Part shown: positions 7,969 to 26,652 of the stretch, one piece after another
Position numbering within the stretch: position 1 is the first letter of the stretch
How the letters are laid out: the number at the start of each line of letters is the position of its first letter
Assembly (NCBI GenBank): GCA_020853885.1
Contig: JADYXZ010000020.1
Coordinates: 378,707-442,706, forward strand
Length of the DNA stretch: 64,000 nt
Source of the DNA: Bradyrhizobiaceae bacterium
GTDB taxonomy: Bacteria; Pseudomonadota; Alphaproteobacteria; Rhizobiales; Xanthobacteraceae
Reading direction: 5' to 3'
Notes under the pieces: generated by a model
What the model saw: the letters and a program-made list of their open reading frames with translations, nothing else
Databases searched by the model: none
What the model was told of the DNA's origin: nothing
Program-made: the position numbers and the translations under genes

Positions 7969-8844
7969 ATGGCCAGTCTGAAGGAATTGCGCAACCGCAT
8001 CGCCTCGGTGAAGGCGACGCAGAAGATCACCAAGGCGATGCAGATGGTCGCCGCGGCGAAGCTCAGGCGCGCGCAGGCGGCCGCGGAATCCGCGCGGCCC
8101 TATGCCGAGCGGATGGAGCGGATGCTCGGTAATATCGCGGCGAGCGTCACGCCGACGCCGGAATCGCCGAAGCTGCTCGTCGGCACCGGCAAGAGCGACG
8201 TGCATCTCCTGCTTGTCTGCACCGCCGAGCGTGGGCTTTGCGGCGCGTTCAACTCGCAGATCGTCCGCCTCGCCCGCGAGCGGGCGAACGCGCTGCAGGC
8301 CGAGGGCAAGACGGTCAAGTTCCTGTGCGTCGGCCGCAAGGGCTTCGAGCAACTGCGGCGCCAGTACGAGAAGCAGATTCTCGAAGTGGTGGACCTGCGC
8401 GCCGCGCGCACGCTCGGCTACGAGCACGCGGCCGACATCGCGCAGAAGGTCGTCGCGCGCTTCGAGGCCGGCGAGTTCGACATCTGCACGCTGTTCTATT
8501 CGCGCTTCAAGTCGGTGATCTCGCAGATTCCGACGGCACAGCAGATCATTCCGCCGGTGTTCGAGCAGAAGGACACGGGCAGCGGCGGCGCGGTCTATGA
8601 GTACGAGCCGGACGAGGAAGAGATTCTCGGCGAGCTGCTGCCGCGCAATCTGGCGACGCAAGTCTTCCGCGCGCTGCTGGAGAACGCCGCGAGCGAGCAA
8701 GGCGCGCGCATGAGCGCCATGGACAACGCCACGCGCAACGCCGGCGACATGATCCGCAGACAAACGATCATTTACAACCGCACCCGTCAGGCGATGATCA
8801 CCAAGGAACTGATCGAGATCATCTCCGGCGCGGAAGCGCTCTAA
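7969..8844 (+). CDS. atpG: F1F0 ATP synthase subunit gamma
   Basis: 291 aa. N-terminus [36 protein letters not shown]; C-terminus [15 protein letters not shown]. Confidence 0.95.
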
Positions 8845-10305
<1,461 letters not shown>

Positions 10306-10313
10306 GACAGCGG

Positions 10314-10589
10314 ATGCAGATTCTCGGCCGACAACGGAATGCCATGCTGGCCTTTCTCGTCGTCGGCCTGCTGATCGGCGCGCTCGCCGGTTACCTGACG
10401 CGGCCCGAGTCGGCGGAGATCAGGATCGGGCCGGTGCAGATCGAGGTGACGGGCAAAGGCATCGCGCGCGACAGCGGCGGGGAATTGACGTCGAGCCAGG
10501 TGCAGCACATCGCGTTGATCACGCTGATCGGCGGCATCATCGGACTGGGGTTCGGCTACGCGGCCGAGCGCGGCAAGCTCAAAGGTTGA
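10314..10589 (+). CDS. Small two-TM membrane protein encoded between atpD and atpC
   Basis: An AGGA lies 6 nt upstream of ATG 10314 (alternative ATG at 10344). Two hydrophobic helices: AFLVVGLLIGALAGYL and ALITLIGGIIGLGFGYA. Confidence 0.6.
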   Translation: MQILGRQRNAMLAFLVVGLLIGALAGYLTRPESAEIRIGPVQIEVTGKGIARDSGGELTSSQVQHIALITLIGGIIGLGFGYAAERGKLKG

Positions 10590-19860: not shown

Positions 19861-21633
19861 TTAAACCCCGTGGCTCTGCAGCCAGGCTTCGAGCGCGGCC
19901 ACCTGCCAGAGCTTGGAATTGCCCTTGGGCGTCAGGTGCGCCTCGGGCGCGGCGAGCAGCCGGTCCACGTAGTCCTGGCGGAAGACGCCGCGCCCGCGCG
20001 CCTTGCTGCTCTCCAGCATGCCGCGCACGAAGTCGAGATAGGGCCCGCGCAGGTATTTGAGGGCAGGGACCGGGAAGTAGCCCTTCGGCCGGTCGATCAC
20101 CTCAACGGGGACGACCTTGCGGGCGGCTTCCTTCAGGATGTGCTTGCCGCCGTGCTTCACCTTCAGGTCCGCGGGCACGCGGGCGGCCAGTTCGACCAGC
20201 TCGTGATCGAGGAAGGGGACGCGCGCTTCCAACCCGTGCGCCATGGTCATGTTGTCGACGCGCTTCACCGGGTCGTCGACCATCATGATCTTCTGGTCGA
20301 GCTCGAGCGTCTTGTCGATCGCCTTTGTCGCGGCCGATTGCTCAAAGAAGGTATCCACCAGTTCGCGGCTCGCGTCGCCGTTCATGAGCTCCGGCGCGAC
20401 GACTTCGGCCATCTCTTCGTGGCCGCGGTCGAAATAGACCTCGGCATACTGGCCGGCGGGATCGTTGGTGCGCAGCATTGCCGGATACCAGTGATAGCCG
20501 CCGAACACCTCGTCGGCGCCCTGGCCGCTCTGTGCGACCTTCACGTGCTTCGAAACCTCTTCCGAAAGTAGATAGAAGGCGACCGTGTCGTGGCTGACCA
20601 TGGGCTCGCTCATGGCTTCGATCGCTTTCGGCAGCGCGTCGAGCATGCGCGAGGCATCGATGTGGATCTGCTGGTGGTCGGTGCCGAAACGTCTGGCGAC
20701 GATGTCGGAATATTTGAATTCGTCGCCTGCGACGCCGCCGACGCTATCAAAGCCGATGGAAAAGGTTTTCAGGTCCTTGTGCCCGCGCTCGGCAAGGAGC
20801 GCCACGATCAGCGAGGAGTCGAGCCCGCCGGAGAGCAAGACGCCCACCGGCACGTCGGCGATGCGGCGGCGTTCGACCGCCGCGCGCATGGCGTCGAGTA
20901 CGGCGTCGCGCCAGTCGTCCTCGCTCATGCCGCGGTCCTCGCGGCGCGGGCCGATGGAAACGTCCCAGTAGGTCTGTTCGTTGCGGCGGCCGTCGGGCTC
21001 GATCGTTAGGATCGTCGCGGGCGGCAGCTTCTGCACGCCCTTGAGGATCGTCCGCGGCGCGGGGACCACGGCGTGCAGCGAGAGATAGTTGTGCAGCCCG
21101 GCCGGATCGATGCGCGTGTCCACGCCGCCGCCGGCCAAGAGCGCGGGCAAGGTGGATGCGAAGCGCAGGCCGCCCGGCACTTCGGCGAGATAGAGCGGCT
21201 TGATGCCGAGCCGGTCGCGCACGAGGAAGACGCGGCGCGTGTCGCGCTCCCAGACGGCAAAGGCGAACATGCCGCGGAAGCGCTCGACGCAGCGCGGCCC
21301 CCAGGCGTGCCACGCCTTGAGGATCACCTCGGTGTCGCCGCCGGAGAAGAAGCGATAGCCCTTGGCGCGCAGTTCGCGCTGCAATTCGCGGAAATTGTAG
21401 ATGCAGCCGTTGAAGGCGAGCACGAGGCCGAGCTCGGGGTCGCTCATGGGCTGCTGCGCGGCGGGGCTGAGATCGAGGATGCTCAGGCGCCGGTGCGCGA
21501 GCGCGACGTTGGACTGGGAGAAGAAGCCGCCGGCGTCGGGGCCGCGCGGCTCCATTTGCTCGGCCATCTTCTGGTGCGTTGCGAGGTCCGGATGGCCGCT
21601 GTCGAATCGGACTTCGCCGCTTAGGCCACACAT
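19861..21633 (-). CDS. Glutamine-hydrolysing asparagine synthase family amidotransferase (AsnB/AsnO-type)
   Basis: 590 aa. Has an N-terminal nucleophile Cys (MCGLSGE), an Ntn GATase domain, and the PP-loop LLSGGLDSS. Confidence 0.9.
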   Translation of the reverse strand: MCGLSGEVRFDSGHPDLATHQKMAEQMEPRGPDAGGFFSQSNVALAHRRLSILDLSPAAQQPMSDPELGLVLAFNGCIYNFRELQRELRAKGYRFFSGGDTEVILKAWHAWGPRCVERFRGMFAFAVWERDTRRVFLVRDRLGIKPLYLAEVPGGLRFASTLPALLAGGGVDTRIDPAGLHNYLSLHAVVPAPRTILKGVQKLPPATILTIEPDGRRNEQTYWDVSIGPRREDRGMSEDDWRDAVLDAMRAAVERRRIADVPVGVLLSGGLDSSLIVALLAERGHKDLKTFSIGFDSVGGVAGDEFKYSDIVARRFGTDHQQIHIDASRMLDALPKAIEAMSEPMVSHDTVAFYLLSEEVSKHVKVAQSGQGADEVFGGYHWYPAMLRTNDPAGQYAEVYFDRGHEEMAEVVAPELMNGDASRELVDTFFEQSAATKAIDKTLELDQKIMMVDDPVKRVDNMTMAHGLEARVPFLDHELVELAARVPADLKVKHGGKHILKEAARKVVPVEVIDRPKGYFPVPALKYLRGPYLDFVRGMLESSKARGRGVFRQDYVDRLLAAPEAHLTPKGNSKLWQVAALEAWLQSHGV

Positions 21634-21885
21634 GATTGAGACGCGAGGGAACCCAACGATGGATTCCGCGCGGGGTCATTTCCTTTCGTGTTTCGCTCCG
21701 ATCGCGGAACGATCGATGCAACGGGCGCAACATCGTTCTCGGTGAATTTCAGCGAATGCCCGTTTATACAAAAATATAGTGAGTGAATGTGGCGAGGATG
21801 CGCTCTGACTCAGCGTCAACGAAGTGGTGAAGGATAGGACGATTATCCTGCTTCAGGCCCCCTCAGTTACTTTGATGGACTTTGC

Positions 21886-22911
21886 TCATACGTTGCGAGC
21901 GCCGAGCAGCCCATCGTGAATGTATTTTGGATCGAATTCATCTATTGCCGTCATAGGGTCGATCGGATCCCCCCACAATCTCCGTCTCTCGACTTCCGGC
22001 AGGGACCAAAATGCGCCGAGGGAGGTAGTATTCGCGAAATGCCGCCAGAGTTCTGGGTTCTCAATAATCCGGCTGAGAGATGTACGAGCAATATGCTCGA
22101 CGATGGCCTCTTTCTTTAGAAGATCCAATCTCACCTCGCGATCGAAGTTTTCCAAATATCTATTTTCGTGCAAGTGCTCGACCGCGCTCCGCACATCATA
22201 AATCTCGGCCATCAAATCGTGATGTCGAGGGCCGATGAACACTTCACTTCGGCTCTTGAAGTGTCGCTTCGTCTCACCACGACTTGGCAAGATGAGTCCA
22301 TCGATGCACCGGGAATATTGGTGGAGCCTTTCAAGAATATCAGGCGTGGTGCGTGTTTCCTGATAAAGGTGGAGCACGCGGAAAAAGCGCCAAGTGCCGT
22401 TCGGTATTGGCGCATCACCAAACATTTTGATCTTGCCCGCGATCCGCGCGCCGGTCGCCAAATCCTTTGCGGTTAGTGCCGGATAGGGTCTGAATGCGCA
22501 GGGTACCGGGATTTCAAAGTCGCCTTGCTGTCGAAAGTCTATTTCGCCCTTGTGCCGCGAACCAGTGAGAACGACAGGTCTATGCGCGGGGGCAAATGTA
22601 CTCGCGAGCAATAGGCCTGCATAAAAGAGGGAGACGAGGCGCTGAAGCAATTGGTTCTCACTGTCGAGAACGTCAGGTCGCTCTGATTTTATTTTGCTGA
22701 GTAAGAAAAGATTTGCTGCTTCCACCTCTTCAGTGCGTATCGTTCCAAGCCATTCCCTCCAATGTGATGGCACCTGAAAATGTGGTTCACTCACAACCCA
22801 TAGGCTGGGTGCAATTAATCCGTTTGGGAGATTATTCTCGACCTTCACGTCTAGACCGACAAAGGCGTACTTCTCACCTTCGGCAATCCAATCTACTCGC
22901 TCTCTAGCCAC
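21886..22911 (-). CDS. Hypothetical protein, 341 aa, AT-richer gene; C-terminal helical region with Rx4H (HEPN-like) motif
   Basis: This is the only long ORF in a region of visibly lower G+C. I recognise no family. The motif YDVRSAVEHLHENRY lies at residues 239-252. Confidence 0.7.
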   Translation of the reverse strand: MARERVDWIAEGEKYAFVGLDVKVENNLPNGLIAPSLWVVSEPHFQVPSHWREWLGTIRTEEVEAANLFLLSKIKSERPDVLDSENQLLQRLVSLFYAGLLLASTFAPAHRPVVLTGSRHKGEIDFRQQGDFEIPVPCAFRPYPALTAKDLATGARIAGKIKMFGDAPIPNGTWRFFRVLHLYQETRTTPDILERLHQYSRCIDGLILPSRGETKRHFKSRSEVFIGPRHHDLMAEIYDVRSAVEHLHENRYLENFDREVRLDLLKKEAIVEHIARTSLSRIIENPELWRHFANTTSLGAFWSLPEVERRRLWGDPIDPMTAIDEFDPKYIHDGLLGARNV

Positions 22912-22942
22912 TATTTTCTCCCGATCGTTATGAATCTGCCCG

Positions 22943-22948
22943 TATAAT
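22943..22948 (+). promoter_or_regulatory. TATAAT hexamer (possible -10) in the 80-bp divergent spacer of the islet
   Basis: The exact TATAAT lies 44 nt upstream of ATG 22992. No -35 element was evaluated. Confidence 0.25.
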
Positions 22949-22991
22949 TGCAGGGACGCCGTACATTGGTCTGTAAAACAACGGACAAGGT

Positions 22992-23564
22992 ATGGAATTT
23001 ATAGCTGTAACGATCATTTTGCTTTTCCTTCTGGCCCTAGCTGGAAAGTCGCGACGGCGTTTTTACGGTCCATCTCCAAGGACGCGTTCTCGGCTGCTTC
23101 AGCTTGGCCAGCAGCAAGGGCGCGACCTGACAGATGTTGGGCAACAACTGCACGCCGTTATGGCAGGTTCGTTCAACAGGCAGCGTGTGTTGAGCCCTTC
23201 AGAGTATCGTGTCTTCCAGATCGTCGAAGATGAAGTCGCGGCGCAACGTGCCGGCTATCGTGTCTTCGCGCAGACCAGCCTTGGCGAAATCCTTTCGTCG
23301 AACGATCGGGAGGCCTATAGCTCAATCAACAGCAAGCGCGTCGATATTCTCGTTATCGATTCCGGCGGTTGGCCATTCTTGGCTGTCGAGTTTCAAGGCG
23401 ATGGTCACTATCAAGGTACGGCGGCCGCGCGGGACGCCGTAAAAAAGGAAGCCCTACGTAAAGCTGGTGTCCGATACTTGGAATTCGGCGCAGCCGACAC
23501 CCCGGATCAAATAAAGTCTCGCCTCCGCGAACTCTTTGCCCAAGGGCGGGCAGGAGCGAGCTAG
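22992..23564 (+). CDS. DUF2726 domain protein (PD-(D/E)xK nuclease-like fold) with N-terminal TM helix
   Basis: N-terminal TM helix MEFIAVTIILLFLLALAG, then SEYRVFQIVED...SKRVDILVIDSGGWPFLAVEFQGDGHY...RDAVKKEALRKAGVRYLEF, which matches the DUF2726 pattern. Confidence 0.78.
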   Translation: MEFIAVTIILLFLLALAGKSRRRFYGPSPRTRSRLLQLGQQQGRDLTDVGQQLHAVMAGSFNRQRVLSPSEYRVFQIVEDEVAAQRAGYRVFAQTSLGEILSSNDREAYSSINSKRVDILVIDSGGWPFLAVEFQGDGHYQGTAAARDAVKKEALRKAGVRYLEFGAADTPDQIKSRLRELFAQGRAGAS

Positions 23565-23566
23565 CA

Positions 23567-25233
<1,667 letters not shown>

Positions 25234-26562: not shown

Positions 26563-26652
26563 GGAGAGGTGGCTGAGTGGTTGAAAGCACCGCACTCGAA
26601 ATGCGGCATACGGGTAACCGTATCGTGGGTTCGAATCCCACCCTCTCCGCCA
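26563..26652 (+). tRNA. tRNA-Ser (anticodon CGA), long variable arm, encoded CCA
   Basis: Acceptor stem GGAGAGG/CCTCTCC; anticodon stem-loop CCGCA-CT-CGA-AA-TGCGG; long variable arm; T-arm GTGGG-TTCGAAT-CCCAC. Ends are +/-1 nt. Confidence 0.9.

Follow-up and report, generated by a model that had tools for sequence, protein, structure and literature searches.

Single-gene bacterial systems that join an N-terminal region to a C-terminal HEPN domain are among the closest described counterparts of the locus studied here. One of these is ApeA, a single-gene HEPN anti-phage protein recognized by the Pfam family HEPN_Apea, PF18739 (bioRxiv 10.64898/2026.03.20.713152). A second relevant group is formed by the DUF2726 domains, which form part of the Vsr/DUF559-like branch within the PD-(D/E)xK superfamily (PMC3424549), occur beside mobile elements, have undergone multiple transfers, and also serve as the effector part in fusions with AbiJ N-terminal domains (PMC3424549, PMC3710099); a literature search found no demonstrated function for any DUF2726 protein. 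Further, defense hotspots flanked by core genes have been described in Pseudomonas aeruginosa (PMC10250203) and Escherichia coli (PMC10121019). Here, we analyze an islet of two genes that bears on all three, located in a 64,000-nucleotide stretch of a Bradyrhizobiaceae genome (NCBI GenBank assembly GCA_020853885.1, contig JADYXZ010000020.1, positions 378,707 to 442,706), the whole of which is called the window below. One gene (21886..22911, minus strand, GTG start) codes for a 341-aa protein, and the other (22992..23564, plus strand) for a 190-aa DUF2726 protein predicted to be membrane-anchored and to have a PD-(D/E)xK-type nuclease fold. An initial annotation, made from the letters alone, proposed them as an undescribed two-gene defense module. 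This designation is not supported by our analysis; the islet itself is real and acquired, and the polymorphism of the slot that holds it is clear.

The islet is a horizontally acquired cargo in a lineage-specific variable slot directly downstream of obg. Relatives were sought through the closest Obg proteins and their contigs were then read; the sample comprises five relatives, all of them metagenome assemblies. The junction between obg and the adjoining amidotransferase gene showed four states besides that of the window, five in all. First, in L152 and L153 (Obg 91% identical), the site is empty, with only 195 bp between obg and the amidotransferase gene. Second, L151 (Obg 92% identical) codes for a 282-aa protein with a weak match to TIR effectors and a 383-aa YaaC-like protein. 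Third, L154 (Obg 93% identical) has a single gene for a 657-aa UvrD/GajB-like helicase. Fourth, L155, with only the C-terminus of Obg on its contig, codes for a DUF2726 protein 78% identical to that of the window, together with an unrelated 536-aa open reading frame (ORF). This contig was placed in the slot by its DUF2726 gene and its Obg C-terminus: the two are convergent at the same junction as in the window, with the 536-aa ORF as the divergent partner. The cargoes are all low in G+C (0.51–0.56 vs. 0.65–0.68). The horizontal acquisition proposed at the outset is thus borne out by relatives with 91–93% identical Obg that have the site empty or filled with other cargo, and comparison of the junction across these genomes returned the expected presence/absence polymorphism (empty in L152 and L153, other contents in L151, L154 and L155). 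Exchange of the cargo presumably proceeds by recombination in the conserved flanks.

The borders of the cargo can be placed within narrow limits. G+C drops abruptly to 0.47–0.57 across ~21650–23450, as had been noticed by hand counts, against 0.66–0.73 on either side, and this interval is the G+C minimum of the 64-kb window at 1.5-kb resolution. Because nucleotide homology to L151 and L154 breaks off at 21794 and 23546, we place the cargo at ~21795–23545 (~1.75 kb, borders ±20 bp), where the G+C is 0.527 between flanks of 0.65–0.69; along this stretch it varies over 50–57%, compared with ~69% outside. On the left, the slot is bounded by the conserved obg gene itself (GTPase ObgE, 23567..24601, minus strand), which is convergent with the DUF2726 gene across a 2-nt gap. 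The conserved right flank is a gene for an N-acetylglutaminylglutamine-type amidotransferase (19861..21633, minus strand; full-length match to TIGR03104, E 3.7e-296), whose conserved upstream region is 21634–21794 by homology to L151 and L154. Contrary to the assumption that obg and proB are normally contiguous, the amidotransferase gene separates them in the window and in L151–L154, the closest relatives, with the empty site included; hence, the insertion site is between obg and the amidotransferase gene. We looked for direct or inverted repeats at the cargo borders and for an integrase, and found none. Like the hotspots of P. aeruginosa and E. coli, the obg slot is a fixed site flanked by core genes, with varied low-G+C cargo, an empty state, and no integrase or att site. 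Unlike those hotspots, its cargoes are mostly not recognized defense systems, and it is represented by five metagenome-assembled relatives. The slot is a place to seek more accessory or defense genes in this lineage.

Our analysis showed that the two genes of the islet are independent and solitary, rather than a co-evolved pair. For the 341-aa protein, we took one genome per species, and obtained 62 loci whose flanks reach ±8 kb at most; a hidden Markov model built from close homologues of the DUF2726 protein found no match within these flanks in any of the 62. Likewise, PF10881 (the Pfam family of DUF2726) is absent from the Pfam-labeled contexts of further homologues, including the 77%-identical P0003, P0004 and P0010, making no co-occurrence in ~70 loci of the family overall. 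From the other side, we examined 80 metagenome loci with DUF2726 homologues 44–81% identical to that of the window, 27 of which extend for 1.2 kb or more in the direction of the expected partner. None of the 80 has a 341-aa family gene, obg, the amidotransferase gene or proB, and about 10 share a chromosomal synteny with genes for methylmalonyl-CoA mutase, MucR/Ros and formate–tetrahydrofolate ligase. Clustering of neighboring ORFs showed no gene recurring in more than 4 of ~60 loci of the 341-aa family, the small groups being related genomes. The initial annotation had tied its self-contained two-gene module to the co-occurrence of the two genes in other genomes; since they co-occur from neither side, and the DUF2726 gene of L155 has a different partner, that proposal falls by its own terms. 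We hold the variable slot and the independence of its two genes with high confidence. More generally, adjacency and a common composition in one genome are insufficient to define a system, as the co-occurrence test overturned the pairing. Both genes are functional, given the purifying selection shown by the ratio of non-synonymous to synonymous substitution rates (dN/dS), which is 0.08–0.11 for the 341-aa gene against its 77%-identical homologues and 0.15 for the DUF2726 gene against that of L155.

The 341-aa protein had been taken for an orphan. We found instead that it belongs to a large family of ~335-aa proteins that lacks annotation. It has 686 homologues in a collection clustered at 90% identity (the top 120 being 59–81% identical), and in an exhaustive profile search of clusters formed at 50% identity at least 1,256 matched (E ≤ 1e-3; 871 at E ≤ 1e-10). 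Full-length members are nearly all 315–360 aa long and align end to end. Their hosts are mainly Alphaproteobacteria (Bradyrhizobium, Rhodospirillales, Bosea, Roseovarius), with distant members in Gammaproteobacteria, Thermodesulfobacteriota, Myxococcota, Acidobacteriota, Nitrospira, Calditrichota and Gemmatimonadota. The 341-aa protein has no match in Pfam, PADLOC, NCBIfam or PHROGs, and all named members are annotated "hypothetical protein", for which reason the family deserves a profile model whatever its function. What holds interest is a large, conserved, mobile and solitary family outside these four collections, and with no structural neighbor in PDB or BFVD.

Several features point to the mobility of this family. 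Its gene averages 5.6 G+C points under its flanks (more than 3 points in 43 of 60 loci), nucleotide homology between loci ends at the ORF borders, and fragmentary copies occur. In L044, L048, L051, L054, L056, L057, L064 and L065 the homologues match only in part or are frame-split, which suggests frequent pseudogenization. We found neither an RNA antitoxin nor a conserved non-coding flank beside the 341-aa gene, as homology stops at the ORF ends and there is no Rfam match. A phage origin was rejected, with no match in 50,697 phage genomes and a single match in IMG/VR.

The AlphaFold2 model of the 341-aa protein is confident (predicted local distance difference test, pLDDT, 85; predicted template-modeling score, pTM, 0.87) and displays two domains. 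The N-terminal α/β domain (residues 1–131; 22519..22911, minus strand) has no detectable relatives and may be a sensor or regulatory domain. The C-terminal domain (residues 148–336; 21904..22470, minus strand) is all-helical and bears most of the invariant polar residues, its model helices by DSSP including 175–186, 192–207, 214–226, 228–246 and 258–284. Among 45 diverse members (24–56% identity), W51, G56, G117, R175, R221, R241, H246 and W302 are invariant, and K14, H197, R201, E/D204, E245 and R276 are near-invariant.

HEPN domains are characterized by an Rx4-6H motif placed where helix 3 ends and in the loop leading to helix 4, an insert that separates helix 2 from helix 3, and a conserved acidic residue in helix 2, typically in the context Ex3[KR] (PMC3710099). 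The Rx4H motif that had been picked out in the C-terminal helical half of the 341-aa protein is RSAVEH, i.e., R241-x4-H246 (22174..22191, minus strand), and it is invariant family-wide: R241 and H246 are present in every one of the 38 close members and of the 45 diverse ones. Among the former, S242 is conserved to at least 90%; among the latter, serine is the consensus at this position, with cysteine or aspartate in a few. In the model, the motif ends helix 228–246 and is followed by a loop and then the long helix 258–284, while an insert (208–227) parts helices 175–186 and 192–207 from the motif helix. Thus, both the Rx4-6H motif, in which a polar residue follows the arginine, and its position agree with a HEPN domain. 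A near-invariant acidic residue, E/D204, is found in helix 192–207, in the context R201-x-x-E204 and not Ex3[KR]. In one member, the region of the motif matched HEPN_Apea weakly (E 0.023–0.063), whereas significant profile or structural similarity to a recognized HEPN family was not found. Accordingly, the HEPN label given earlier is unproven, since no sequence-profile or structure search matched. A HEPN-type RNase is the leading hypothesis for this protein and not an assignment, because motif and helix order fit but no search was significant; judged from the sequence and the model, we consider it close to an even call, a little short of probable.

If the protein is a HEPN-type, metal-independent RNase with an N-terminal α/β and a C-terminal helical domain, its most likely mode would be that of a single-protein sensor-plus-HEPN system acting in defense or abortive infection, like ApeA or AbiJ. 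The RNase would be kept inactive by its N-terminal domain until this domain senses a cue of infection. As a single Rx4-6H motif implies a homodimeric active site, a homodimer would then join two Rx4H motifs to allow RNA cleavage. Taken as a whole, the explanation that the obg slot holds two independent, solitary, horizontally mobile genes, one for a membrane-tethered, cytoplasm-facing protein of the DUF2726 nuclease fold and the other for a HEPN-type RNase with the above mode of action, is one that we modestly favor. A defense role in particular is a tentative proposal.

Comparison with named systems places the 341-aa family near several of them and within none. Like ApeA, it consists of a single gene without an obligate partner, with an N-terminus of unknown fold and a C-terminal domain with one Rx4-6H motif, and its only match to a HEPN family, weak as it is, is to HEPN_Apea over the motif region. 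However, ApeA has ~600 aa with a β-rich N-terminus of ~300 aa (PMC3710099), as against ~335 aa and an α/β N-terminus of ~130 aa here, and its motif is RNKITH rather than the RSxxEH of the 341-aa family. Thus, with different size and N-terminus and no recognition by Pfam or PADLOC, the 341-aa protein does not qualify as an ApeA. With the AbiJ, AbiD/F and AbiU2-type proteins (PMC3710099) the family shares a variable N-terminus with a C-terminal HEPN domain (here a candidate one), solitary genes, neighborhoods of defense and restriction-modification genes, and presence on plasmids, but it has no sequence or structure match to them. The RSAVEHLH of the 341-aa protein also resembles the HepT pattern in having Rx4H with an aromatic residue or histidine two positions on. 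The HepT motif is RNxxxHxY. HepT differs in its length of ~120–140 aa and in being always adjoined by an MNT antitoxin, whereas the 341-aa family has no conserved partner. By hhalign, the family profile is related neither to a HepT-like neighbor in L003 (0.5% probability) nor to the YaaC-like protein of L151.

The surroundings of the family are suggestive of an association with defense, although its immediate neighbors vary widely in kind. Its neighbors of defense type include HepT/MNT, HEPN_LA2681, SoFic, PD-Lambda-4, PDC-S39 and PDC-S68, with the HepT/MNT pair adjoining the family gene in L003, and its neighbors of mobile-element type include three integrases, two resolvases and two Mutator transposases. 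The homologue WP_166308774.1, which Bradyrhizobium sp. 2S1 carries on its conjugative plasmid pBsp2S1b, is found in a defense cluster, with AbiEii/DUF6088, an IS3 element, a HEPN/Toprim-associated protein, AbiV and a CBASS cyclase–SAVED pair as neighbors.

Other results weigh against both the HEPN assignment and the defense role. Searches of the 45 diverse members with Pfam and PADLOC gave no significant link to HEPN, and NCBIfam gave none. In these members and 10 isolated C-terminal domains only stray matches of single members were seen (MauJ 0.017, HEPN_Apea 0.02–0.06, AbiEii 4e-4). Despite the confident model, Foldseek found nothing at E ≤ 1e-3 in PDB and BFVD, with no HEPN protein among the top matches in either, and nothing beyond chance matches (e.g., S15, the factor X Gla domain) came out of sequence searches of PDB with the protein and two profiles. 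The evidence from defense contexts is anecdotal, and many loci have metabolic surroundings (L068, L069, L157–L162). Other cargoes of the obg slot match defense models only generically (TIR-like, UvrD/GajB-like), and the two genes of the window have no PADLOC match. Finally, a solitary active RNase without a partner needs self-regulation, which is here assumed.

These results lend themselves to a different explanation, namely that the 341-aa family consists neither of HEPN RNases nor of defense proteins but of accessory enzymes or regulators of a new fold, for instance in nucleotide or small-molecule metabolism, which are mobile and have their R...H pair by chance. This would account for the lack of a profile or fold match to any HEPN, the many loci among metabolic genes (luciferase-like monooxygenase, DUF1801, trp), a conservation high for a defense gene (60–80% identity across many lineages), and the absence of the family from the 50,697 phage genomes. 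It fits poorly with the atypical G+C, the fragmentary copies and the mobile-element neighbors, with the location of some loci in dense defense islands, and with an invariant arginine, histidine and glutamate arranged as expected for HEPN. Moreover, no metabolic neighbor is conserved, which argues against a pathway role. We regard this explanation as unlikely, though a serious one. A more specific form of the defense reading is likewise doubtful: that the 341-aa family represents new single-protein anti-phage RNases, in which a novel sensor would be joined to a highly divergent HEPN-like domain, and whose genes would enter variable slots singly, in Alphaproteobacteria and more rarely in other phyla. 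Were it to prove an active single-protein defense RNase, a widespread, compact and so far unmodeled system would be added to the catalogue. The family is found mainly in soil Alphaproteobacteria such as Bradyrhizobium, in which defense repertoires are poorly explored.

Some loci of the family show local gene arrangements that deserve separate mention. In L163 (5066–11375), the family gene lies between genes for an Mrr_cat nuclease and an unknown 381-aa protein, on the same strand with gaps of 5–6 nt, and a Gabija-like pair of an AAA_15/DUF2813 ATPase and a UvrD helicase stands beside these three genes. PDC-M21, a candidate system of PADLOC (gene A, E 1.2e-31; gene B, E 6.7e-61, AbiEii-like), is found directly upstream on the same strand in L052 (6645–7918), and also in L023, L024 and L053; this arrangement is confined to one gammaproteobacterial lineage. 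In a sub-clade comprising L025 (8001–9835), L027 (8001–9949), L034 (8001–9835) and L164 (8001–9833), a conserved ORF of ~264 aa follows 20–35 nt downstream on the same strand. It contains IRDKTAFHYD, an R-x5-H motif, and one copy is found in an IMG/VR contig; PADLOC gave no match for the downstream ORF in L025, L027 and L034, nor for the upstream ORFs. As these four loci share 81–83% nucleotide homology (8001–9833) over the family gene and most of this ORF, the two may move as a two-gene cassette. Lastly, on the plasmid NZ_CP147719.1 (L156), the family gene is followed after 10 nt by a 178-aa ORF (10030–10566), and a 76%-identical homologue of it is found in L035 (9081–9614), at most ~125 nt past the end of the match. 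The L156 ORF is labeled "methionyl-tRNA formyltransferase-like", probably wrongly, as judged from its PDLLV...AVIEVK motif, which is typical of PD-(D/E)xK nucleases. A motif scan for a recurrent neighbor of the restriction-endonuclease fold showed no enrichment.

The second gene of the islet codes for a protein with at least 3,302 homologues. Its recognition as a DUF2726 protein with an N-terminal transmembrane helix and a nuclease-type fold, already made in the initial annotation, holds: Pfam PF10881 matches residues 64–173 (E 8.8e-18, 64.7 bits vs. a cut-off of 24.7), and the model has a helix at residues 2–17. This helix and the KSRRR that follows it are encoded at 22995..23051 (plus strand), and a hydrophobic N-terminus is present in all 44 aligned homologues. 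By the positive-inside rule applied to the KSRRR after the helix, the nuclease domain should face the cytoplasm. The core motif VDILVID...AVEFQGDGHY (23340..23411, plus strand) contains D118, D123, E133, Q135 and H139; across the 44 homologues the first three are invariant and the last two at least 90% conserved, with E71, K115, R116, R147, D148 and K151 also belonging to the conserved core. The catalytic-type residues are thus intact, with Q135 replacing the lysine as a Vsr/DUF559-like variant. At the top of the Foldseek results stand only PD-(D/E)xK-fold nucleases, none at E ≤ 1e-3 with a model of pLDDT 75: BstEII (E 5.7e-3, probability 0.93), the VRR-NUC structure 4qbn (probability 1.00, template-modeling score 0.63 on the target), FAN1, EcoT38I and I-Bth0305I. 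In its conserved D118 and E133-x-Q135...H139 and its restriction-endonuclease-fold matches, the 190-aa protein is like DUF2726 proteins in general; it is unlike them in that its subfamily is stand-alone and has an N-terminal membrane anchor. We infer a membrane-tethered nuclease-fold protein, which might also act in defense.

The recurrence of DUF2726 in the obg slot could also be read to mean that it is the constant part of a modular two-gene system with an exchangeable second gene, a role that would fall to the 341-aa gene in the window and to the 536-aa PD..ExK-like ORF in L155. Indeed, the DUF2726 genes of the window and L155 are both convergent with obg and divergent from a putative nuclease-type gene. 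But these are two cases only, from one lineage; no recurrent partner was found across the 80 DUF2726 loci, about 10 of which have ordinary chromosomal synteny, and the 536-aa protein has no homologue in the DUF2726 or 341-aa family loci examined. This makes such modularity improbable. Least probable of all is the model proposed at the outset, of one co-evolved module, an RNase/DNase effector or toxin–immunity pair acquired and working together: although the genes are adjacent, with a common 80-bp divergent spacer and similar low G+C, and genes of the restriction-endonuclease fold are found near some family members (Mrr_cat 5 nt upstream in L163, the 178-aa PD..ExK-like ORF in L156 and L035, DUF559 2.6 kb off in L005), the two families do not co-occur in ~70 and 80 loci from either side, 77%-identical homologues of the 341-aa protein are found without DUF2726, the 78%-identical DUF2726 of L155 has another partner at the same site, and PD..ExK-like neighbors are not enriched (2/120 immediate, 0/114 second).

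Returning to two independent genes in a variable slot, some further features of the slot and the window were noted. The two ORFs are indeed read divergently from an 80-bp spacer (22912..22991). An exact TATAAT was correctly reported in it, at 22943–22948 (plus strand). It is the only exact copy in the window, a number that chance alone predicts, and would serve the DUF2726 gene; a consensus scan of the window found no full sigma-70-like promoter and no consensus −35 element at the TATAAT. In L151, the cargo (8122–10150) comprises the TIR-like 282-aa gene, whose match to the TIR effector model PDLC00733 (E 3.4e-5) is generic, and then the YaaC-like (PF14175) 383-aa gene; it may be another uncharacterized pair. 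The 536-aa ORF of L155 (1132–2742, minus strand) has no Pfam match and contains PDVLV...AIVAECK, a PD..ExK-like motif. The amidotransferase gene stands without an adjoining partner from its usual three-gene cluster, and likewise in all close relatives examined. Rfam gave no match in the window but one tRNA, its sole one: tRNA-Ser(CGA) at 26563–26652 (plus strand), which lies upstream of rplU, 3 kb from the cargo and away from the border of the islet.

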